Both the position numbers and the translations under genes were made by a program. The notes under the pieces were generated by a model that worked only from the letters and a program-made list of their open reading frames with translations, was not told where the DNA came from and ran no database searches. From positions 35,653-99,652 of the forward strand of contig JADHVI010000002.1 of NCBI GenBank assembly GCA_016784125.1: a stretch of DNA of 64,000 nucleotides, read 5' to 3'. Source of the DNA: Candidatus Woesearchaeota archaeon. GTDB taxonomy: Archaea; Nanobdellota; Nanobdellia; Woesearchaeales; GCA-2686295. This document shows positions 20,808-46,413 of this stretch, piece by piece (positions within the stretch are counted from its first letter, which is position 1; each line of letters starts with the position of its first letter).

Positions 20808-21815
20808 TTAAGGCTTATTTTTCTTATGTCTCATCCATAAAAACATTCCCACTATTAAAATAAAAATCAAAAACAATATAATGCTCAAAAGATTCGCATA
20901 CTGCCAACCAATAAGTGCATTCTGAATTGAATAAAAGTATTGCTTTGTACCAAAGACATCCCATGAATTAAATACACTCGTACCCTTAAATATCAGAAGT
21001 ATAAAACCTATGAATAAGAACAAAATACCAGCTATAAAATTAGTTGAATGAATGTGATAAGTTTTATCATCTATCTTAAACTTAAACATTTTACCTTTAA
21101 TAAATCTGCTTTTAGACAAATCAAATTTATCATAAAGCATAGATAAGACAAATAAAGGCACAAGATTGCCAATAGAATAAAACAGCAGAAGCATAGCAGA
21201 ATAAAAAATATTATGAAGCAAAGCACCAATACCAAGAATTCCTGCAAGTATAGGACCTAAGCAAGCAGTCCAACCAATAGCAAAAAATACTCCGAATAAT
21301 AAAGTTCCAGGAATATCATTATTGAATTTTCTATTAGGCTTTATAAAAGAAGCAAAACCTTTGCCAGAGATTGAAACAAGACCCATCAGAATCAAAAAAA
21401 CTCCTGCAAGTGTTACTAACCAATTACTCTGTAATATTGAAAGTGATCGTTCACCAATAAAGCCCGCAATAATACCCATCACTACAAATACTGCTGCAAA
21501 GCCTACAAAAAATACGAGAGTCATCTTAGTGATATTCTTCTTCTCTTTGAATGTATAAGAGAAGTAAGCAGGTAAGAATGGTAAGATACAAGGAGATAAT
21601 ATACCTAAAATACCAGCAACAAAAGCTATGAAAAAAGAGATTTTGACAGAGAAGTCAAGGGTTTGTTGTTGATTTGATTCTATTATCTTCTGTAAACCAA
21701 TAGGTAATTCTGAAGAGTTATCTCCATCATGACTATGATTTTCATGTGCAGTTACAATCGAAGCAAAAGCTACTAAGAAAATCAATAATAACAAAACTGA
21801 AAATAATCTCTTCAT
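20808..21815 (-). CDS. ccdA: CcdA/DsbD-family transmembrane thiol:disulfide electron transporter with His-rich N-terminal segment and C-terminal TM extension
   Basis: A signal peptide is followed by AHENHSHDGDNSS. TM1 motif SPCILPFLPAYFSY and a second Cys helix (GWTACLGPILAG) are typical of CcdA. About 100 extra hydrophobic residues follow at the C-terminus. Confidence 0.8.
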   Translation of the reverse strand: MKRLFSVLLLLIFLVAFASIVTAHENHSHDGDNSSELPIGLQKIIESNQQQTLDFSVKISFFIAFVAGILGILSPCILPFLPAYFSYTFKEKKNITKMTLVFFVGFAAVFVVMGIIAGFIGERSLSILQSNWLVTLAGVFLILMGLVSISGKGFASFIKPNRKFNNDIPGTLLFGVFFAIGWTACLGPILAGILGIGALLHNIFYSAMLLLFYSIGNLVPLFVLSMLYDKFDLSKSRFIKGKMFKFKIDDKTYHIHSTNFIAGILFLFIGFILLIFKGTSVFNSWDVFGTKQYFYSIQNALIGWQYANLLSIILFLIFILIVGMFLWMRHKKNKP

Positions 21816-21820
21816 CTTAT

Positions 21821-22261
21821 TTACTCAACTATTAATTGTCCTCTCATACTACCATGACCAGCTCCACAAGGAACATTACAAAAAAATGTAAATGTTCCAG
21901 TTTTATCGGCTATAAAGTTTACATTCACTTCTTGTCCTGGTTCTAACATTTCATTCACACCGAATTGTGAAAGCATAAAGCCATGAGTTACATCGACACT
22001 CTTTATGTGTAATTCCACGTTATCACCAAGATTCACTCTAATCTCAGAAGGTTCAAAGTTCCAATTTCTGGCAATGAGATCAAATTCTCTCACTTCACCT
22101 GAGAACTTGTCATCTCCATTAGCAACATCAGTTGCTTGAGAGTCAATTGTTTGTTGATTACAAGCAACTAGCAATAATAGACTGGCAAGTAATAATATTA
22201 ATTTTTTGTTTTGCAATTTTGTCACCTCATTAAAAAAAATAAAAAAATTATGGTTGAACAA
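21821..22261 (-). CDS. stand-alone cupredoxin lipoprotein with CuA-type metal site
   Basis: Lipobox LLLVAC. The spacing H-x34-C-x3-C-x3-H-x2-M (THGF...FFCNVPCGAGHGSM), counted by hand, matches the binuclear CuA consensus. Confidence 0.75.
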   Translation of the reverse strand: MFNHNFFIFFNEVTKLQNKKLILLLASLLLLVACNQQTIDSQATDVANGDDKFSGEVREFDLIARNWNFEPSEIRVNLGDNVELHIKSVDVTHGFMLSQFGVNEMLEPGQEVNVNFIADKTGTFTFFCNVPCGAGHGSMRGQLIVE

Positions 22262-23399
22262 TTTCTCCTGTCGTCAAGTCCTTATATGGTTGTCTAGAAA
22301 CGTCCACTAACCTAAATACATAAGTACCATCAGTTTCTACTGTGCCAACATCCTTCCACGCGCTAACAATAACAGAATAAGCACCAACATCACCTTCCAA
22401 TATAATCGTAGGAACTTTTACAATGTTATATTTTTCAATTAATGCTTGACCTTCTGAAGTAGAAATATCAACTGATTTTTCCTCTCCGAAAACAGCACCC
22501 ATATTTACCAAAATTGGTTTATGAAAACTATTTGGATCATAACATTCAGTACATGTTTCATCTGTTATGACAGTCATTGAAAGCAAACCAACAACTCTAT
22601 TCTCGGTTAAATCAACATAAGGAGGAGTTAATAATCTAGTCACATAATAACCGTTTGATTCCACACTTCCCAGTTGATTCCAACTACCAGTAATACCTGA
22701 ACCATAAATTTCCAAATCACTTGACAATATTAAAGTTGGAATTGTTTGTATGTTATATTGAGATATTAACACTTGACCTTCAACACTGTTCATTTCAATC
22801 GTACGCTCATCAGTAATAACTACTCCAGATTGTTTCACACTATTTAACAAAACATCCAAATTATAACAATTGTCGCACGAAGAATCTTGAACTAATATTG
22901 TTAATACTCTTCCTTGTAATTCGCCAGAAACTGCATCAGTATATGGCGGTATGAGCGATCTAAAGACTAAAGCATCATCCTGAAGTTCCATATTTCTAAT
23001 AGAAGTCTTGTTAATTTGACCAAACAATAATACACTTGGAATCTTTTCTATTCCATATTCAGAAATCAGTTCTTTTGCTTCTTCTGAATCAAAGTTTAAA
23101 GATTGTTCTTGTGTTATATTTACGTGAGACTTCTTGATAGTATCAATAATTGGTTGAATATCAAAACAATCATTGCAACTATAATCCGTTATAGTTATCA
23201 TTTGTAGCTCAGCAGGTTTGGTTGCTTCTTTTACCACTGCAAGTCTCTCATCAAGCAAACTATCAAAAGAAGATGTTTGCACAATATTAAATATGGCTAC
23301 CAGTATCAAAACGATTCCCAATACTAAATAGTAATTTTTATGAGAGTTGACTTGTTTGCTGGTTTTTTTAGCGTTTTTCTTATTTTCCATTAACATCAC
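22248..23399 (-). CDS. membrane-anchored protein with three tandem thioredoxin-like CxxC repeats
   Basis: A basic N-tail and one TM are followed by three repeats of about 100 aa. Each repeat has ITD-x-x-CxxC(F/Y) (CNDC, CDNC, CTEC) and a downstream (I/V)P(S/T)(V/L/I)(L/I)L cis-Pro-like element. Confidence 0.7.
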   Translation of the reverse strand: MMLMENKKNAKKTSKQVNSHKNYYLVLGIVLILVAIFNIVQTSSFDSLLDERLAVVKEATKPAELQMITITDYSCNDCFDIQPIIDTIKKSHVNITQEQSLNFDSEEAKELISEYGIEKIPSVLLFGQINKTSIRNMELQDDALVFRSLIPPYTDAVSGELQGRVLTILVQDSSCDNCYNLDVLLNSVKQSGVVITDERTIEMNSVEGQVLISQYNIQTIPTLILSSDLEIYGSGITGSWNQLGSVESNGYYVTRLLTPPYVDLTENRVVGLLSMTVITDETCTECYDPNSFHKPILVNMGAVFGEEKSVDISTSEGQALIEKYNIVKVPTIILEGDVGAYSVIVSAWKDVGTVETDGTYVFRLVDVSRQPYKDLTTGEIVQP

Positions 23400-23422: not shown

Positions 23423-23647
23423 TTAACAACCGCCCACCATTGTTGGTAGATTTTGTATGCTTGTTGGCAAAGCTGCGGGTTGACTACCGCTGCCTCCTGA
23501 TGATAACGGCGTTGTGCTAGTTGAAGAGCCAATTGATAGATCTTCATTAGCGATTTCTGATTTTAAATTGTTTAATTGAACTGCTTGAACGATTGACAGC
23601 ACCACAAGTACTACCATCACCACAGTTACTATTGTTGTTGATTTCAT
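23423..23647 (-). CDS. small membrane-anchored protein ending in NLPTMVGGC-COOH
   Basis: 74 aa with a GAGGTG SD 7 nt upstream. It has an N-terminal TM, a Ser/Thr/Gly linker, and a C-terminal tail shared with the 258-aa protein. Confidence 0.6.
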   Translation of the reverse strand: MKSTTIVTVVMVVLVVLSIVQAVQLNNLKSEIANEDLSIGSSTSTTPLSSGGSGSQPAALPTSIQNLPTMVGGC

Positions 23648-23661
23648 TTTTTTACACCTCG

Positions 23662-24105
23662 TTAGTATTCACATCCTGTAAGCTCAGCCAATCTTTCAAA
23701 AGATTGAACACGCTCATATTCCTGACCATCTATTACCCATGTTGGTCTTAGATTAAGGTCTTCTTCAATTTCATAATTAATATATTTGAATGATTTACCA
23801 AACATCTGTTTTTGACCATTCGTATATTGACACCAATCTTCACCATACATCACAGCGCCCTTCTCTGTTAAACATTTAGCAAAGTTATCCCAGTTACCAG
23901 GTTTTTGGCTTGAATAAACACCGAATATTACTAATAAAATAACTATTGCCAAAGAAACAAAACCAATTGTTTTATTTCTTCTACTTCTGGAAACTTTGTT
24001 AGTTTTGAAAAGTTTATCTCGCTGTTTCCTATTAGATTCCACCTGTTCACTGGCAGCCTTCTGATTCTCTAATCGACGTTTTCTTCTCTCATTTTTTGAC
24101 ACCAT
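23662..24105 (-). CDS. membrane-anchored thioredoxin-like protein with a single active-site Cys (VKOR-associated Trx-domain type)
   Basis: GAVMYGEDWCQYTNGQKQMFG ... RPTWVIDGQEY ... LAELTGC resembles the Trx-like domain fused to VKOR homologues (YGA-WC-x-HC-x-x-QK), but CxxC is reduced to C-Q-Y-T. Confidence 0.6.
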   Translation of the reverse strand: MVSKNERRKRRLENQKAASEQVESNRKQRDKLFKTNKVSRSRRNKTIGFVSLAIVILLVIFGVYSSQKPGNWDNFAKCLTEKGAVMYGEDWCQYTNGQKQMFGKSFKYINYEIEEDLNLRPTWVIDGQEYERVQSFERLAELTGCEY

Positions 24106-24125: not shown

Positions 24126-24299
24126 TTATCCGCAGCCCCCTCCGACGTAATCTGAACTTGGCGGTGGTATAGTGTTTGGGTCTCCCGAAGAACATCCCAC
24201 TACTACTAAGGCTAAGATTACTAACAAAGCCACTACAAATAACATTTTGTTTCTTGCGTATAACAATTTCAAAGAATTGTATATTACACCTATATTCAT
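24126..24299 (-). CDS. small anchored/lipoprotein-like protein ending in YVGGGCG-COOH (not in ORF track)
   Basis: 57 aa: MNIGVIYNSLKLLYARNKMLFVVALLVILALVVVGCSSGDPNTIPPPSSDYVGGGCG. Its ATG is 1 nt after the upstream stop, with GGAGG 8 nt upstream. An alternative start at 24245 gives a 39-aa lipobox (VVGC) form. Confidence 0.45.
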   Translation of the reverse strand: MNIGVIYNSLKLLYARNKMLFVVALLVILALVVVGCSSGDPNTIPPPSSDYVGGGCG

Positions 24300-24300
24300 T

Positions 24301-25077
24301 TTAACAACCTCCTACCATTCCTGGTAAATTATCCAAAGCAGATGTATCTCCACCCGCAACAGTCATTCCTAACTCAATCATGTTCTTTGGAAAGAATAGT
24401 GTCTTCCACTTTATTACTTCTCGCAATATTTCTCCATCATTGTAATCAGTGTAAGCTGTTAAGTAAAGAGTCACTGATAGAAGAGCAGGGTTATGTTGAC
24501 AACCACATTTAGAGTTGCCGTTCTTGTCAGCGCCTGCAGGGCCAATTCCACAACAATATTCACATGAAACTCCATATGGATTTGAAGCGAGATTTATGTA
24601 TCTCTGGAATGCTTCTGGATTACTTTGTTTTACTTCTGATTTCAATCCTTCAAACATCCTTGCCAGAGTTGCTAATGAAGTAACTGGATCATCAAAGTTT
24701 ACTCCTAACGCATCTCCATACTCAGGTGTTCCTGTTGGAAATAAAATAGCCATTGCATCTTCTGCAGTGTATATATTCTCTACAGGAAAAACTGCCGCAA
24801 TAGCATGACCTGTTGATGTTATCTTTGATAAGTCAAGATCTAAAAGATCAGTTCCGCCAGCATTAATTGATCTTGCACTAACAGAATTTAAATCACCAGA
24901 GATACTGTTTATTTGTGTTTGATTAAAAATCATTACTACAAGTACTAAGACAAACAAACCAATGATTGGCATTGTAAGTGCGTTCTCTGTCTTTTTCGTT
25001 TTGGCTTTTGTTGTTTTAGTTGTCGTTTTAGCTTTAGTTTTCGTTTCCGCTTTTATTTTTGTTTTTCCTTTTTCCAT
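24301..25077 (-). CDS. membrane-anchored Cys-rich protein ending in NLPGMVGGC-COOH
   Basis: 258 aa with a Lys/Thr-rich cytoplasmic tail, one TM, the Cys cluster SCEYCCGIGPAGADKNGNSKCGCQHNP, and the same C-terminal tail as the 74-aa protein. Confidence 0.65.
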   Translation of the reverse strand: MEKGKTKIKAETKTKAKTTTKTTKAKTKKTENALTMPIIGLFVLVLVVMIFNQTQINSISGDLNSVSARSINAGGTDLLDLDLSKITSTGHAIAAVFPVENIYTAEDAMAILFPTGTPEYGDALGVNFDDPVTSLATLARMFEGLKSEVKQSNPEAFQRYINLASNPYGVSCEYCCGIGPAGADKNGNSKCGCQHNPALLSVTLYLTAYTDYNDGEILREVIKWKTLFFPKNMIELGMTVAGGDTSALDNLPGMVGGC

Positions 25078-25196: not shown

Positions 25197-26963
25197 TTGG
25201 AACTTCAGGGGGAAAAAATAGTGAAAATTAATCGACCATTTGTAATCCTATTAATATCATTAATAATGTTAGTTATAATAGGCGTAGTTGTATTTACTAA
25301 TGTTCTCTCATTCAGAAATATAGAATCAGTTCTAATAAATCAGTTAAAAGAAAATCAGTTGACTCAAACAGAGTTTGCAGCTTCTCAAATAGAAGATTAT
25401 GTACTCCAAGTAAAAAACGAGTTGATAACACTAAGCAAGTTTCCAGACATAGATTCCTTCAATATGAATGAATGCAATGGCGATATGTCCATAGTTCATG
25501 GGGATATAGAAGGAAAAATAAATAATCTATTAAGAGTTGAAAAAGATGGAACCGTAATTGAATGTTCATCACCAATTTATTCTAATTTTGTCGGTTTGAA
25601 CATACAAAATAAGGATTATTTTCGGATCCCTAAAGAAACAAATGAGCCGTTCATAGATAGTTCTATTAGACAAGGAAACATGAGACAGATAATCATCGCA
25701 GCACCTCTTTTTGAAACAACAGAGTATACTCCTTATCCAAATTTTCTTGGTCGGTTTGAAGGTTTACTGTTGAGTATCATCGAAGTTAATACACTTTACA
25801 ATATGTACATACACCCAATAGCAGATCCTGAAAAAAGCTCTTTCTTATTAATCAGTTTGGAGACTGGCGAGACTATTCTTAAAAGTAATAATATGGCAGA
25901 ATACTCTGAGATCAAGAATGATATTCCAATAAAAAGCAGACAGTTGAGTGCAATCAGTAATTTTAATGGTTTCGGAGAAACAATCTTTACTTCATCAGAT
26001 ATGATTCTAGGCTCTGAAACTTGGAGATTAATTGTTTTAACACCTCTGGAAAATATAGAGGAAAATGTGGGGAGTGTTCAAAAAAGACATTTTTTCATTC
26101 TAGGATTTGTAATAGTTGTAATCATTGCATTGTTCTTTTTTATGATAACACTTTACAAGTCAAAAGAAAAAGTACAACTAAAATTAGATAGAGCCAATGT
26201 AACCTTAGAACAGTTAGGCATCAATATTGAAACTGAAACAGACAAATACAATCAAGCAGATATAACTCTTGAACCAAAAAAAATATACTTAATAAAAGAA
26301 GACGACGAAAATCATGCACATGAATTGTTTATAGATTCTCTTAATAAGGGATTTGCAGGTCTTGGAATTGTAAGAGAAAATCCACGCGAGCTTAGAAAAA
26401 AGTACAATTTACAAAAAACTTCTTTCATATGGATGACAGATACTAAAACTGTAGATATTCCTACAGAAATGAAGATAGATAACTTGTACAGGTTAATCTC
26501 AGAGTTTGTCAAGAAGAGCAAAAAGTGTGTCATTCTAATAGATAGACTTGATTATATTTTATCCGAGAACAGCTTCGAAGATGTCATAAAGAGAATTCAT
26601 TCTTTGAAAGATTTGGCATTATCAAATAATTGCATAATAATAATCTCTGTTAATCCAGAACTGGTTCCTGATGTTCAGCTTAAAGCAGTAGAAACTGAGA
26701 CAATCGATTTGTATGGAAAACATCTAAGTGATAAAGTGAATCTTTCTGAGATGGAGTTTGAAATGCTAAAACTTGTGAATGAATATAATACTACAAATAA
26801 GCTAATATCTTACAAAGACATTACAAGTAAATTCAATATTACAAAGCCAACAACAAGAGCAAAGATTAACAACTTGCAAAATCTTAGTTTAATACAAGTA
26901 GAACAGAGAGGAAGGTTTAAATCTCTTAAAATCACGTCGACAGGAAGAAGAATTATAGGTTAA
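25197..26963 (+). CDS. membrane-bound one-component sensor/regulator: extracytoplasmic sensor domain - TM - DUF835 - winged helix
   Basis: Two TM segments flank an external domain of about 260 aa. The DUF835-like core is GLGIVRENPRELRKKY...FIWMTD...CVILIDRLDYIL. A C-terminal wHTH follows (ISYKDITSKFNITKPTTRAKINNLQNLSLI). An alternative start is the GTG at 25221, 8 nt after GGGGG. Confidence 0.7.
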   Translation: MELQGEKIVKINRPFVILLISLIMLVIIGVVVFTNVLSFRNIESVLINQLKENQLTQTEFAASQIEDYVLQVKNELITLSKFPDIDSFNMNECNGDMSIVHGDIEGKINNLLRVEKDGTVIECSSPIYSNFVGLNIQNKDYFRIPKETNEPFIDSSIRQGNMRQIIIAAPLFETTEYTPYPNFLGRFEGLLLSIIEVNTLYNMYIHPIADPEKSSFLLISLETGETILKSNNMAEYSEIKNDIPIKSRQLSAISNFNGFGETIFTSSDMILGSETWRLIVLTPLENIEENVGSVQKRHFFILGFVIVVIIALFFFMITLYKSKEKVQLKLDRANVTLEQLGINIETETDKYNQADITLEPKKIYLIKEDDENHAHELFIDSLNKGFAGLGIVRENPRELRKKYNLQKTSFIWMTDTKTVDIPTEMKIDNLYRLISEFVKKSKKCVILIDRLDYILSENSFEDVIKRIHSLKDLALSNNCIIIISVNPELVPDVQLKAVETETIDLYGKHLSDKVNLSEMEFEMLKLVNEYNTTNKLISYKDITSKFNITKPTTRAKINNLQNLSLIQVEQRGRFKSLKITSTGRRIIG

Positions 26964-35052: not shown

Positions 35053-35999
35053 TGGAAGTCCTCATTAATTGTTTTTACAAAGTCTATCTTCGAGTGACAG
35101 TATTCTATACATCTACCGCAACCCGTACACATGCTTCTCTTGAATTTGTCTTGGAAAAACTGTGTTTTATGAAGTACTCTATGTCTATATCTCTTCAATC
35201 TTGTATCTCGAAATACATGCCCACCAGCTACTTGTGTAAAATCTTTTGAATGGCATGAATCAATTGTTCTGACTCTATCTCCATTTTTTGTTCTTGGATT
35301 TATTTCATCTTGTAAATCAAAGCAAAAACATGTAGGACAAAGTATGGTGCATCTTTGACATGAAACACATTGTTCTGAATCTTTTTCCCAAAAGTTATCT
35401 GCAAAGAATGGTTTCAAATCTTTTCTGTCCAAGTGTTTTTTTGTTTTTGGTAATGGGATATCCACTTCTGCTTCTGGCAAATGTCTAACTAGTTTTGCAC
35501 CATTGTCAGTTAAAACATCAATGAAATAGTTATGTTCTCGCTTGTGCAAAAGCAAGTCATACCCTTCTTTTTTTAGATCCATTGATTCACAGAAGCAATA
35601 CTTTGAAGGAGGAGTATGACAATTAATTCCTATTATAATAATACTATCTCTTCTCTTTTTGTAAGCTTCATCAGCATACTCATGGTTTAAGAATAGTTCA
35701 TCCAAAATAGCTATACCATTAATATCACATAATCTTGCGCCAAATATGAGTTTTTTCTTTTCTACTTTGTCAACTGATTTGGTTTCACCACTTCTTATTT
35801 TCAGTAATGCTTCTTTATTTGGCAAGAAATATTTCTTTATTGGAAAAAATGGATTTCCACTATTTAAATCTATATCACGGATGTTTTTAACAGTCTCAAA
35901 TCTAACCATTTTTGTCGTGACTGGAGCTATAAGCTCTCCTTCATCTTTCAAATGCTGGAGAAACTTGTTGTAATCCTCTTTTTTCAACACCCTTCCCAT
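35049..35999 (-). CDS. hydB: sulfhydrogenase beta subunit (AsrA-like 4Fe-4S protein)
   Basis: CVSCQRCTILCPTCFCFD and CTGCGRCIEYC ferredoxin-type motifs. First gene of the hydBGDA order. Confidence 0.85.
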   Translation of the reverse strand: MGRVLKKEDYNKFLQHLKDEGELIAPVTTKMVRFETVKNIRDIDLNSGNPFFPIKKYFLPNKEALLKIRSGETKSVDKVEKKKLIFGARLCDINGIAILDELFLNHEYADEAYKKRRDSIIIIGINCHTPPSKYCFCESMDLKKEGYDLLLHKREHNYFIDVLTDNGAKLVRHLPEAEVDIPLPKTKKHLDRKDLKPFFADNFWEKDSEQCVSCQRCTILCPTCFCFDLQDEINPRTKNGDRVRTIDSCHSKDFTQVAGGHVFRDTRLKRYRHRVLHKTQFFQDKFKRSMCTGCGRCIEYCHSKIDFVKTINEDFQ

Positions 36000-43695: not shown

Positions 43696-45462
43696 TTAGC
43701 AAGATCCGCCTGCTGAAGGTGCTTGTGTTGGCGCTGGAGCTATTGGAATTACTTCACCACATTCTTCTGGTGCTTCATCAAATTCCAAACACAAAGCATT
43801 CTTGATACTTTCTGCATCTCTGCCCGTCATAAAGGTCTTTCCGTTTACTAAGAAAGTTGGTGAGACTTGCGGTGGTATTAAAGTTATTTGTCCATTTTGA
43901 GGATATTCTCTTACGAGTCCTTGAACCAACCTGTCTTCTTCTGCAGCAATTGTTAATTTATCATTTGCTTCGCAGTTCCTGATAACTTCTTTATCTATTC
44001 CAACTGCATCTGCTGCGGTTTCCCAACAAGTATCCGCATTTCTTGAGTCACACATCTCATTCACTTTTACTGTGAATTTAAAGAAAGATTCATATCCAAG
44101 TTCTCTTAAAGCACATAGCTCTCTTACTCCTTGGTTTCCTTCTTGTTCACCGTGCAAAGATCCAACTGTGTCGCCTGCAACATTTATGATGTAATGTGGT
44201 ACTATGTCAACTTTATCTCCTAATACTTGGTATACACCATATGCTGCTTCATCTGCAGGGTTTCCATATGGACAGAATGACATCACAAAGTAATCCAATC
44301 TTGGCTTGGCTGGTTTCTCATTAAAGCCAAGAAATGCTAGATTATCATCAACATATCCTAATATTTGTTCTTGTTGTGCTTCGAGTTGTCTTTGCATTTC
44401 TGCTTCATATGCTACTCTTGCTTCATCATCTATAAACCAGTTTGCACCGATTGCTTCATCTCTCAATCTGAATCCATTTCCTGATTCCATAAATGAACTT
44501 CTAAGCTCTGGATTGTTTTCCCAAGTAAACGTTTCTTCTAAGGATTTTTCAAAGATGAATGCTGGCAAGAATACAAGTCCATTTTCTTCCACTAATGCTT
44601 GTCCTTCTGCATCATCAACATCTACTTTTCTGATGTTTGCTCCTGGAAAAAACTGTGTTGTTACCGATTCAATATTTGCAGTATTGCAGGTTGAACAATC
44701 ATTATCTGTTAGAACTACAACTTCCAATTTTACTGATTCAAAACATGCTTCATGTTCACCACCAAGTGCTTCGCAAATCGCTGTTATGTAGCTTATCTCT
44801 AATCTTCCACCATTGTATGACTTCCCATTCAAATATACTGTTGGACTTGCGCTAGCACCTACTTTATTTGTTTCTACTTCACATGCTTTTAATAGTTCAA
44901 CACCATCATTTACAACGCAACTAGCAATTGCTTCTGTATCGATTGATAATTGATTTGCGCAGTTAGCATATTGTGCTTGTCCTGCTTGGTAATTTTGATT
45001 GAAGCATAACAGGTAATCATAGTGTTTCTCAGGAAAGAGTTTCTCAACACATAACTGCCTCATATTCTCATCTACTTCTGGCTGTCCATGTAAGCTTTGA
45101 AAATTATCTCCTTGTGAATTAACGATATAGTTAATGTTTAAATCAACATCACCATCAAATCTTTGTACCGCTTTTACGAGTTGTGTTTCAGCTTGTGTTC
45201 CTGGCGGACATTGACTCATTACGTATAAGTCAAATACAGCTTCACCTGCTGGTGCGCTTTCGTTCAATGCAAAAACTGATACTAATATAACTGCTATTAA
45301 CACTACAATCAAAGCTGCCAAACTTTTTTTGCCTAAAGGTTGACATCCGCATGAATCATCTTTGCAAACTTCTCCTACTTTATTCTTAATAGGTTTTTTA
45401 GAACTAGGCTTCTTTTTTGTCACTTTTTTTTTAGTTAATTTTTTTGCTGGCATAAATACCAC
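43696..45462 (-). CDS. membrane-anchored multi-domain thiol-redox-like protein (two GILT/DsbA-like modules + one Trx-like CxxC module) ending in GGSC-COOH
   Basis: Lys-rich tail with CKDDSCGC, then one TM. Two similar modules follow (YVMSQCPPG...SLHGQPEVDEN...LC and YFVMSFCPYG...SLHGEQEGNQG...LC). The central VVVLTDNDCSTCN...EGQALVEENGL module resembles the repeats of the 383-aa protein. Confidence 0.65.
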   Translation of the reverse strand: MVFMPAKKLTKKKVTKKKPSSKKPIKNKVGEVCKDDSCGCQPLGKKSLAALIVVLIAVILVSVFALNESAPAGEAVFDLYVMSQCPPGTQAETQLVKAVQRFDGDVDLNINYIVNSQGDNFQSLHGQPEVDENMRQLCVEKLFPEKHYDYLLCFNQNYQAGQAQYANCANQLSIDTEAIASCVVNDGVELLKACEVETNKVGASASPTVYLNGKSYNGGRLEISYITAICEALGGEHEACFESVKLEVVVLTDNDCSTCNTANIESVTTQFFPGANIRKVDVDDAEGQALVEENGLVFLPAFIFEKSLEETFTWENNPELRSSFMESGNGFRLRDEAIGANWFIDDEARVAYEAEMQRQLEAQQEQILGYVDDNLAFLGFNEKPAKPRLDYFVMSFCPYGNPADEAAYGVYQVLGDKVDIVPHYIINVAGDTVGSLHGEQEGNQGVRELCALRELGYESFFKFTVKVNEMCDSRNADTCWETAADAVGIDKEVIRNCEANDKLTIAAEEDRLVQGLVREYPQNGQITLIPPQVSPTFLVNGKTFMTGRDAESIKNALCLEFDEAPEECGEVIPIAPAPTQAPSAGGSC

Positions 45463-45486: not shown

Positions 45487-46413
45487 TTATTCTTTTAGTT
45501 TTCTATCAATAATTTTTTTGAATTCTTTATAAGATTTTGGTCCTACTAATGATTCTTCTCCGTTTATGAAGAATGTTGGCGTTCCATAAATGCCTGCGAG
45601 ATGTCCATCCGCATAGTCATTGTTTAATTCATCATCATATTTCTGGGACAAAACACACTCATCATATTGTTCCATATTAATTCCCAAAGGAAGTACGAGT
45701 TCTCTAATTGTACTATCATTTAGAATTTCTTGGTTTTCAAATAGTGCAAAATAATAATCCCAATAGCCTTCTCGACTTTGTTCATAAACACATTGTGCAC
45801 TTAATGATGGCTCATGAGCGTGTTCGTGAATACTCAACGGAAAATCTCTGAAAACAAAAAGAATTTCATCTTGATTATTTTCATAAAGCTTTTTTACGGC
45901 TCCAAGAGCTGCTTCTCTAGAGTATTGACATTTGAAACAACCAAACTCTATAATAGTCACTTTTGCATCAGGATTACCAAACCATGGATCATCATCAACA
46001 CCCACTATTCCCGGATTCAACTCTGCCTTGTCTGCGATGCCACTAATACCATTTGATCCAGTTCCACCAGGATTAAAAGGACAAAAACCAGTTGCATCTT
46101 CACCATTGCAGTTCTGATAAAGAGCTAAGTAGTATATTCCTTGAATAGAGTAAACAATGCTAATAATAAACAATATTAGAAATATCCAAGAAATTATTTC
46201 AAAATGTCTGTAAATAAATCTTCCACCTACTGGACAACGCTTCATAAGTTTGCCTGTGATTTGTGCTTTTAACCTCTTGTCAAGACCCGTATCACATTTT
46301 CTCAAGGTAACTCTTTTGAACATACAATCCAATGCTTCCTTAGCAATAATTCTATGAGTGCTGCTAAATATTCCTAGAATTCCAAAGACGATGAGTGCTA
46401 TGATACATATCAT
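45487..46413 (-). CDS. DsbA-like thiol:disulfide oxidoreductase fused to an N-terminal Cys-rich two-TM domain
   Basis: DsbA domain with TIIEFGCFKCQYS (CxxC) and GTPTFFING. The N-terminal roughly 115 aa have two TM helices with Cys residues on both flanks (C-x10-C, RCP, NCNGEDATGFCP). Confidence 0.75.
   Translation of the reverse strand: MICIIALIVFGILGIFSSTHRIIAKEALDCMFKRVTLRKCDTGLDKRLKAQITGKLMKRCPVGGRFIYRHFEIISWIFLILFIISIVYSIQGIYYLALYQNCNGEDATGFCPFNPGGTGSNGISGIADKAELNPGIVGVDDDPWFGNPDAKVTIIEFGCFKCQYSREAALGAVKKLYENNQDEILFVFRDFPLSIHEHAHEPSLSAQCVYEQSREGYWDYYFALFENQEILNDSTIRELVLPLGINMEQYDECVLSQKYDDELNNDYADGHLAGIYGTPTFFINGEESLVGPKSYKEFKKIIDRKLKE

Follow-up and report, generated by a model that had tools for sequence, protein, structure and literature searches.

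The stretch of DNA analyzed here (the window; 64,000 nucleotides (nt), positions 35,653 to 99,652 of contig JADHVI010000002.1, assembly GCA_016784125.1) comes from a Candidatus Woesearchaeota archaeon, a very small DPANN symbiont, and encodes, on its minus strand, a protein in which a CxxC-containing segment is repeated three times. The initial annotation of the window had read these segments as thioredoxin (Trx)-like modules, each with an active site and a cis-Pro loop, in a single anchored chain. We found that the repeats are real and that Pfam matches, an AlphaFold2 model, Foldseek searches, and the invariance of the CxxC and Pro residues all agree with that reading. The gene, which we call the triple-Trx gene, and the features of its product are as follows.

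22248-23399, minus strand: triple-Trx gene, from the list of open reading frames (ORFs); the longest ORF is 383 amino acids (aa)
23280-23333, minus strand: single N-terminal transmembrane anchor (residues ~23-40), from the sequence
22920-23222, minus strand: module R1 (residues 60-160), repeat hidden Markov model (HMM) domain E 2e-29
23166-23177, minus strand: CNDC of R1; C75 and C78 invariant
23037-23039, minus strand: cis-Pro-loop Pro121 of R1; P121 invariant
22596-22919, minus strand: module R2 (residues 161-268), repeat HMM domain E 2e-33
22866-22877, minus strand: CDNC of R2; C175 and C178 invariant
22737-22739, minus strand: Pro221 of R2; P221 invariant
22251-22595, minus strand: module R3 (residues 269-383), repeat HMM domain E 2.5e-34
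22542-22553, minus strand: CTEC of R3; C283 and C286 invariant
22410-22412, minus strand: Pro330 of R3; P330 invariant

The upstream limit of the gene, 23399, is the GTG of the longest ORF. Because M4 is nearly invariant in the alignment of homologues, and because a homologue 94% identical to the triple-Trx protein (P0001) is 380 aa long, the start is more likely the ATG at 23390 (residue M4), which gives a 380-aa product. A Lys-rich N-terminus precedes the anchor, and in the AlphaFold2 model a helix covers residues 20-60, the anchor running on as a stalk to about residue 60. From the positive-inside rule we infer an N-in/C-out topology. The protein contains six cysteines in all, as CNDC (residue 75), CDNC (residue 175), and CTEC (residue 283).

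The strings quoted in the initial annotation (ITITDYSCNDC, ILVQDSSCDNC, and TVITDETCTEC, and likewise SEEAKELISEYGIEKIPSVLL, VEGQVLISQYNIQTIPTLIL, and SEGQALIEKYNIVKVPTIIL) are all present in the protein. We tested for internal similarity by pairwise BLASTP of ~105-aa segments (residues 56-160, 161-268, and 269-383), which gave 32% identity over 96 aa for R1/R2 (E 2.4e-16), 28% over 110 aa for R1/R3 (E 3.1e-12), and 37% over 101 aa for R2/R3 (E 1.9e-22). Smith-Waterman z-scores among the three were 17-29, and none of 1000 shuffles matched the observed score. Self-BLAST of the whole protein returned the identity match only; the similarity is seen by segment-to-segment comparison. Given the pairwise E values and the shuffles, the triplication is far beyond chance.

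The modules adopt a thioredoxin fold by each approach used. In Pfam, the protein scores 35.2 bits for Thioredoxin (cut-off 23.5) and 33.7 bits for Thioredoxin_3 (cut-off 24.8), and the AlphaFold2 model, built with 88 homologues, has a mean predicted local distance difference test score (pLDDT) of 93.0 and a predicted template-modeling score (pTM) of 0.80. In the model each module runs strand, CxxC, helix, strand, helix, Pro, strand, beta-hairpin, a beta-alpha-beta-alpha-beta-beta topology, with the CxxC between a strand (63-71, 165-171, 272-279) and a helix (82-90, 182-190, 289-299), and with P121, P221, and P330 directly before strands 122-127, 222-225, and 331-336, the cis-Pro position. Foldseek against the PDB returned multi-Trx proteins as all of its top matches (ERdj5, ERp44, protein disulfide isomerase (PDI), Pyrococcus protein disulfide oxidoreductase (PDO), QSOX, and the N-terminal domain of AhpF; probability 0.9-1.0). 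Because global TM-scores to these matches are ~0.14, the arrangement of the domains is the protein's own. Among solved structures, a single-repeat profile matches the N-terminal unit of Pyrococcus PDO best (1j08 E 2.5e-9; 1a8l E 1e-8). A minority of single repeats match Pfam Trx models at E<=0.001, any one family at most 6 of 51, and so by sequence the repeat module is a divergent subfamily of Trx.

A word-indexed search returned 94 homologues, mostly 355-441 aa and from DPANN Woesearchaeota and Nanoarchaeota; those that have a name are called either "hypothetical protein" or "thioredoxin family protein". An alignment of 88 sequences has thirteen invariant columns (C75, C78, P121, G127, G163, C175, C178, P221, Y232, C283, C286, P330, and Y372), among them all three CxxC pairs and all three cis-Pro-loop prolines. 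The active-site dipeptides are position-specific (CxDC-F-D in R1, Cx(K/Q/E)C in R2, and Cx(E/D)C-Y-D in R3), contain hardly any Pro, and are unlike the classical GP, PH, GH, and PY sites. A His seven residues past the R3 CxxC is kept in 66 of the 88 sequences. These results support the conclusion that the three segments are true thioredoxin-fold modules and that the protein belongs to the thioredoxin-fold superfamily, every testable defining feature of which it shows. That all three modules are also catalytically competent, and face outward from one membrane-anchored chain, is predicted from the sequence.

The triplication is not peculiar to this genome. In a maximum-likelihood tree of 51 single repeats, the repeats cluster by position and not by species: R1 groups with the first unit of two-unit proteins (support 100/99), R2 forms its own clade (92/70), R3 groups with the second unit of two-unit proteins (96/88), and R2 and R3 are sisters (100/99). 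Because repeats group by position across species, the triplication is ancient and older than the spread of the family, and the two-unit form corresponds to R1 plus R3. When 1.84 billion representatives were searched exhaustively by HMMER with the single-repeat profile (E<=1e-30), 724 proteins were retrieved (~720 clusters at 50% identity); none of the clusters carries a functional name. Nearly all of the best 150 of the 724 contain three matched stretches. Four-module forms (P0095-P0098, 482-502 aa) retain all four CxxC intact in each, and two-unit proteins of 276-291 aa occur on contigs L024, L025, L026, and L028; the comparison of copy number among relatives thus yielded two-, three-, and four-module forms. 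Since L024 and L026 also encode a bacterial GroEL (~800 bits), they derive from bacteria of the candidate phyla radiation (CPR) and not from archaea. The family is large and restricted to DPANN archaea and CPR bacteria. Within the window genome's own class its distribution is patchy, with at least one module in 40 of 201 genomes and three or more in 17. One locus (L027:7911-10605) holds a decayed copy with two modules, a frameshifted third, and a duplicated fragment.

A fourth module had been noted within a 588-aa protein elsewhere in the window, and it too is real, though more distant.

44527-44730, minus strand: fourth, more distant module in the 588-aa protein (43696-45462), from BLASTP against R3 and the repeat HMM
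44686-44697, minus strand: CSTC of the fourth module, within the 588-aa protein

This module (residues 245-312) aligns with R3 at 33% identity over 63 aa (BLASTP E 2e-7) and with the repeat HMM over the core alone (HMM positions 4-73, E 5.6e-7). It lies between two GILT-like domains (Pfam GILT), the N and C halves of the protein being alike (E 2e-19), and the protein ends in SAGGSC, which resembles the tails of the cassette proteins described below. Other genomes of the class (G008, G073, and G101) also have reading frames of ~600 aa with a single module. The initial annotation had gone on to describe a family expanded in this genome. We rejected that part as overstated, because the repeat HMM finds no module in the 953-kb genome beyond the triple-Trx and 588-aa proteins: four modules in two proteins. 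At 45487-46413 on the minus strand lies the gene for a 308-aa protein in which a Cys-containing membrane N-terminus is fused to a DsbA-like domain (Thioredoxin_4, E 1e-21); neither DsbB nor VKOR, which could re-oxidize it, was detected in the genome, which is 84% complete.

The triple-Trx gene is the fifth of seven packed minus-strand genes, with gaps of -14 to about 30 nt. In order, these encode the 258-aa, 57-aa, 147-aa, and 74-aa proteins, the triple-Trx protein, a CuA cupredoxin, and CcdA, and we refer to the set as the cassette.

24301-25077, minus strand: 258-aa anchored all-alpha protein with the tail NLPGMVGGC, from an alignment and an AlphaFold2 model
24126-24299, minus strand: 57-aa lipoprotein-like peptide with the end YVGGGCG, from a genome-wide C-terminal motif scan
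23662-24105, minus strand: 147-aa anchored Trx-like protein with one active-site Cys (WCQYT), from the sequence
23423-23647, minus strand: 74-aa anchored peptide with the end NLPTMVGGC, directly upstream of the triple-Trx gene
21821-22261, minus strand: CuA-type cupredoxin lipoprotein (H...CxxxCxxxHxxM), Pfam Cupredoxin_1 E 4e-11, COX2
20808-21815, minus strand: CcdA/DsbD-type thiol-disulfide transporter, Pfam DsbD_TM E 9e-14

The 258-aa protein carries an invariant cysteine knuckle, CExCC...CxCxH (C172, E173, C175, C176, C191, C193, and H195 are invariant in its family). Its AlphaFold2 model is all-alpha (pLDDT 82), a fold search of the PDB gave no match (best E 0.5), and Pfam and NCBIfam searches were empty. 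This Cys-knuckle protein and the 74-aa peptide share the ending LPxMVGGC, and in the window's own genome a G(G/S)C C-terminus is found on real-looking proteins in the cassette and the 588-aa protein only. We compared the cassette across 28 related loci from public assemblies, found with a 12-sequence alignment. Of the loci with sufficient flank, those of CPR bacteria among them, essentially all have a small tail-bearing ORF immediately upstream of the multi-Trx gene, with a member of the 258-aa family beside it. The exception, and the sole locus without the cassette, is L027, where the Trx gene is broken and tail-Cys genes were not found nearby. Homologues of the 147-aa protein occur in 13 related loci, including L006-L008, L010-L012, L014-L016, L021, and L022.

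The 57-aa ORF, which lies under the usual 60-aa cut-off, has a lipobox-like VVGC and a Pro-rich linker before its YVGGGCG end, and counterparts ending in GPIGGGCG occur at seven loci (L006, L007, L008, L011, L012, L014, and L016). Divergent from the cassette, at 25197-26963 on the plus strand, is a gene for a membrane sensor with a DUF835 and a winged helix-turn-helix domain; because its position is kept in related loci (L001, L007, and L010-L014, at 38-72% identity), it is likely a regulator of the cassette. In CPR bacteria the cassettes continue (L024:8769-16316; L026 and L028:8850-12725) with DUF1573 proteins, small membrane proteins, and a DsbD-superfamily protein.

The CcdA gene lies 5 nt downstream of the cupredoxin gene and is the single DsbD_TM match in the genome (84% complete). 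In the sample of 201 class genomes, CcdA is present in 15 of the 17 with three or more modules and in 34 of the 184 without (odds ratio 33, Fisher p 9e-9, phylogenetic relatedness ignored). It lies within about 4 kb of the triple-Trx gene in 10 of the 17, and it is the next gene downstream in L013, L014, L017, L018, and L020. Cassette-type CcdA is long (about 320-350 aa), and behind its signal-like N-terminus comes a His-rich stretch (HENHSHDGDN in the window, HEGHDHND in L001); this external stretch may be a metal-binding site.

A link to copper is seen in gene order and in fusions. The longest ORF of the cupredoxin overlaps the 3' end of the triple-Trx gene by 14 nt, and the two genes adjoin in the window, L001, L006, and L007. 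In three homologues (P0102, P0146, and P0157) a cupredoxin is fused to the C-terminus of a triple-Trx protein (Cupredoxin_1 E 1e-12 to 3e-13); in P0157 this part carries the complete CuA motif and is clearly homologous to the cupredoxin of the window. The window's cupredoxin belongs with the "nosZ-like" CuA proteins of DPANN archaea from oxygen-deficient zones (PMC10936187). Downstream in the window is a copper island that includes a CopA ATPase and a YHS/TRASH mini-protein, genes with homologues in 12 related loci. In the CPR contig L024, an HMA-DsbD_2-cupredoxin fusion is followed by CopA.

The conserved company of tail-Cys proteins, cupredoxin, and CcdA points to a likely role. Within this cassette, which we take to be specific to DPANN archaea and CPR bacteria, the triple-Trx protein would be the thiol-disulfide oxidoreductase. 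Because the family travels with these partners, surface thiols and copper sites are probably kept reduced, and our best reading, to which we give about an even chance, is that the triple-Trx protein is an extracytoplasmic, CcdA-fed reductase for copper-site and tail cysteines, in the manner of TlpA and ScsC. Here we infer both the substrates and which way electrons flow: the adjacent CcdA would take reducing equivalents from cytoplasmic thioredoxin and hand them to the Trx modules, which would in turn keep cysteines outside the cytoplasm in reduced form. The candidates for such protection are the pair of Cys that bridges copper in the neighboring CuA cupredoxin and the terminal Cys of the proteins with an LPxMVGGC tail; copper-damaged surface proteins, in which copper-catalyzed disulfides would be repaired, are a possible further target. 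Three sites in one chain would take the part of the ScsC homotrimer.

Several observations weigh against a CcdA-fed reductase. The tightest linkage of the multi-Trx gene is to the tail-Cys proteins and not to CcdA, and the cupredoxin is adjacent or fused in a minority of loci only. No PF02683 match was found in three of the four CPR two-module genomes or in the genome that holds the three-module locus L019; the CPR loci have more distant DsbD-superfamily proteins 2.5-4 kb downstream, with weak scores (that of L028, at 26 bits, is just below cut-off). The co-occurrence statistic takes no account of phylogenetic relatedness, and the absences from the genome are provisional because it is 84% complete. 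Finally, the dipeptides CxDC, Cx[KQE]C, and Cx[ED]C match no characterized reductase or oxidase, so the sequence by itself does not tell the redox potential.

The same neighborhood could serve oxidation. The protein would then be an oxidative-folding catalyst or PDI-like isomerase that introduces or shuffles disulfides in surface proteins, and the Cys-knuckle protein would re-oxidize it via a flexible Cys-ending tail, substituting for DsbB or VKOR in organisms poor in quinones. Consistent with this role, the best fold matches are the PDI family, ERp44, and QSOX; a DsbA-like protein and Cys-rich surface proteins are encoded, yet no VKOR or DsbB was found in the genome (84% complete); and the most constant neighbors are the tail peptide and the Cys-knuckle protein, with its five invariant Cys and one His on a fold without a PDB match. 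However, the Cys-knuckle protein has no recognizable cofactor-binding or oxidase signature, the strong tie to CcdA, which imports reducing power, suits a reductase or isomerase better than an oxidase, and an acidic residue before the second Cys is atypical of strong oxidants. We consider an oxidative function rather unlikely. The copper connection could instead be direct, the CxxC pairs binding Cu(I) as do Sco-, ScsC-, and CopZ-like sites and exchanging it with the cupredoxin and the tail cysteines, which would make the protein a copper binder, buffer, or chaperone. The cupredoxin fusions in other lineages, the copper islands and CopA in many related loci, the His beyond the R3 CxxC, and the subpicomolar affinity of ScsC for Cu(I) (PMC8900818) are in favor of such a role, but the invariant cis-Pro-loop proline and classic Trx geometry suggest thiol-disulfide exchange, and the Sco-type CxxxC plus distant His (PMC6669012) was not found in the triple-Trx protein. 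As the principal function we judge copper binding improbable; it is compatible with reductase activity.

Two further roles appear very remote. CcdA commonly serves reductases of the ResA/CcmG type in cytochrome c maturation, but the Redoxin and AhpC-TSA families were unmatched in a Pfam scan of the triple-Trx protein, and we rejected the role because no gene of the CcsA/CcmC/CcmF family (PF01578) was found in the genome (84% complete). Calsequestrin, with three Trx-like domains, is among the fold matches and would suit a non-catalytic scaffold of the calsequestrin/ERp29 type; the invariance of the six active-site Cys in the 88 homologues led us to reject it. A broader idea, which we offer as speculative and would not expect to hold in full, is that the multi-Trx protein is the redox hub of an undescribed extracytoplasmic thiol relay confined to ultra-small DPANN and CPR cells, with flexible, membrane-tethered LPxMVGGC peptides as swinging single-Cys arms that would shuttle disulfides or Cu(I) between the Cys-knuckle protein, the three Trx sites, the cupredoxin, and the DsbD-type transporter. 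If true, the relay would replace DsbB/VKOR and small-molecule thiols and would be quinone-independent.

Both DPANN archaea and CPR bacteria have a lifestyle of attachment to other cells, and many of them lack the quinone-based machinery by which other microbes handle extracytoplasmic disulfides. The family offers a handle on how surface thiols and copper are controlled in these organisms, through two to four Trx sites per chain and genetic ties to CcdA, cupredoxins, and Cys-tailed proteins. The parts of the cassette are small soluble domains, so the CcdA-fed reductase hypothesis is open to direct tests in vitro. The internal triplication is modestly interesting by itself; the cassette and the cupredoxin fusions add weight. 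In full-text literature on DPANN archaea or Woesearchaeota with thioredoxin, CcdA, or copper, we found the family not described.

Among known systems, the archaeal and Aquificales PDO (1a8l, 1j08, 2ayt; TIGR02187) likewise carries tandem Trx units with CxxC in one chain, is nearest by sequence among solved structures (profile E 2.5e-9, with the common motif ...EGKEL..KY.I...P), and matches the triple-Trx protein with a Foldseek probability of 1.00. PDO differs in being cytoplasmic, with two units in about 225 aa and no membrane anchor, whereas the triple-Trx protein fails TIGR02187 (36.3 bits vs a cut-off of 185), comprises three units that each add a beta-hairpin and a PPY linker, and is extracellular by its predicted topology. 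The multi-Trx architecture is also common to the PDI family (PDI, ERp57, ERp44, and ERdj5), which supplies the best whole-chain Foldseek matches (E about 1e-6, probability 0.9-0.98). PDI proteins, however, combine catalytic a with non-catalytic b domains (a-b-b'-a') and use CGHC sites, whereas the triple-Trx protein has a CxxC in every domain, no CGHC, and a global TM-score to them of about 0.14.

In organization, a parallel is the Scs system of Proteus mirabilis and Caulobacter crescentus, in which trimeric ScsC isomerases bind Cu(I) and work with the DsbD-like ScsB (PMC5524982, PMC8900818, PMC10907172). ScsC, like the triple-Trx protein, presents three Trx CxxC sites on a helical stalk, and the system has a DsbD-family membrane reductase as partner and a link to copper handling, as at the triple-Trx locus. 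ScsC, however, is built from three identical DsbA/DsbG-like subunits, each with an inserted helical domain, whereas the triple-Trx protein consists of covalently linked minimal Trx folds: it has no DSBA or Thioredoxin_4 Pfam match, has short helices only between beta-3 and beta-4 in the AlphaFold2 model, and aligns marginally with ScsC chains, over the stalk and first strand only (phmmer E 0.18-0.27). Bradyrhizobium TlpA, of the ResA/CcmG type, shares an anchored, outward-facing Trx fold tied to CcdA; it maintains in reduced form both the CuA cysteines of CoxB and those of ScoI (PMC6669012), and a CuA protein is a plausible client of the triple-Trx protein too. TlpA differs in being a single domain with a CVPC site in the Redoxin/AhpC-TSA families, neither of which (PF08534, PF00578) matches the triple-Trx protein at E<=0.1, and the dipeptides of the latter are acidic and without Pro. 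We conclude that the triple-Trx family fits none of PDO, TlpA/ResA/CcmG, ScsC/DsbA/DsbG, or PDI, and that it is best described, from its sequences, as a distinct family, confined to DPANN archaea and CPR bacteria, whose members have two to four units, all apparently catalytic, a predicted place at the cell surface, and a cassette of their own.

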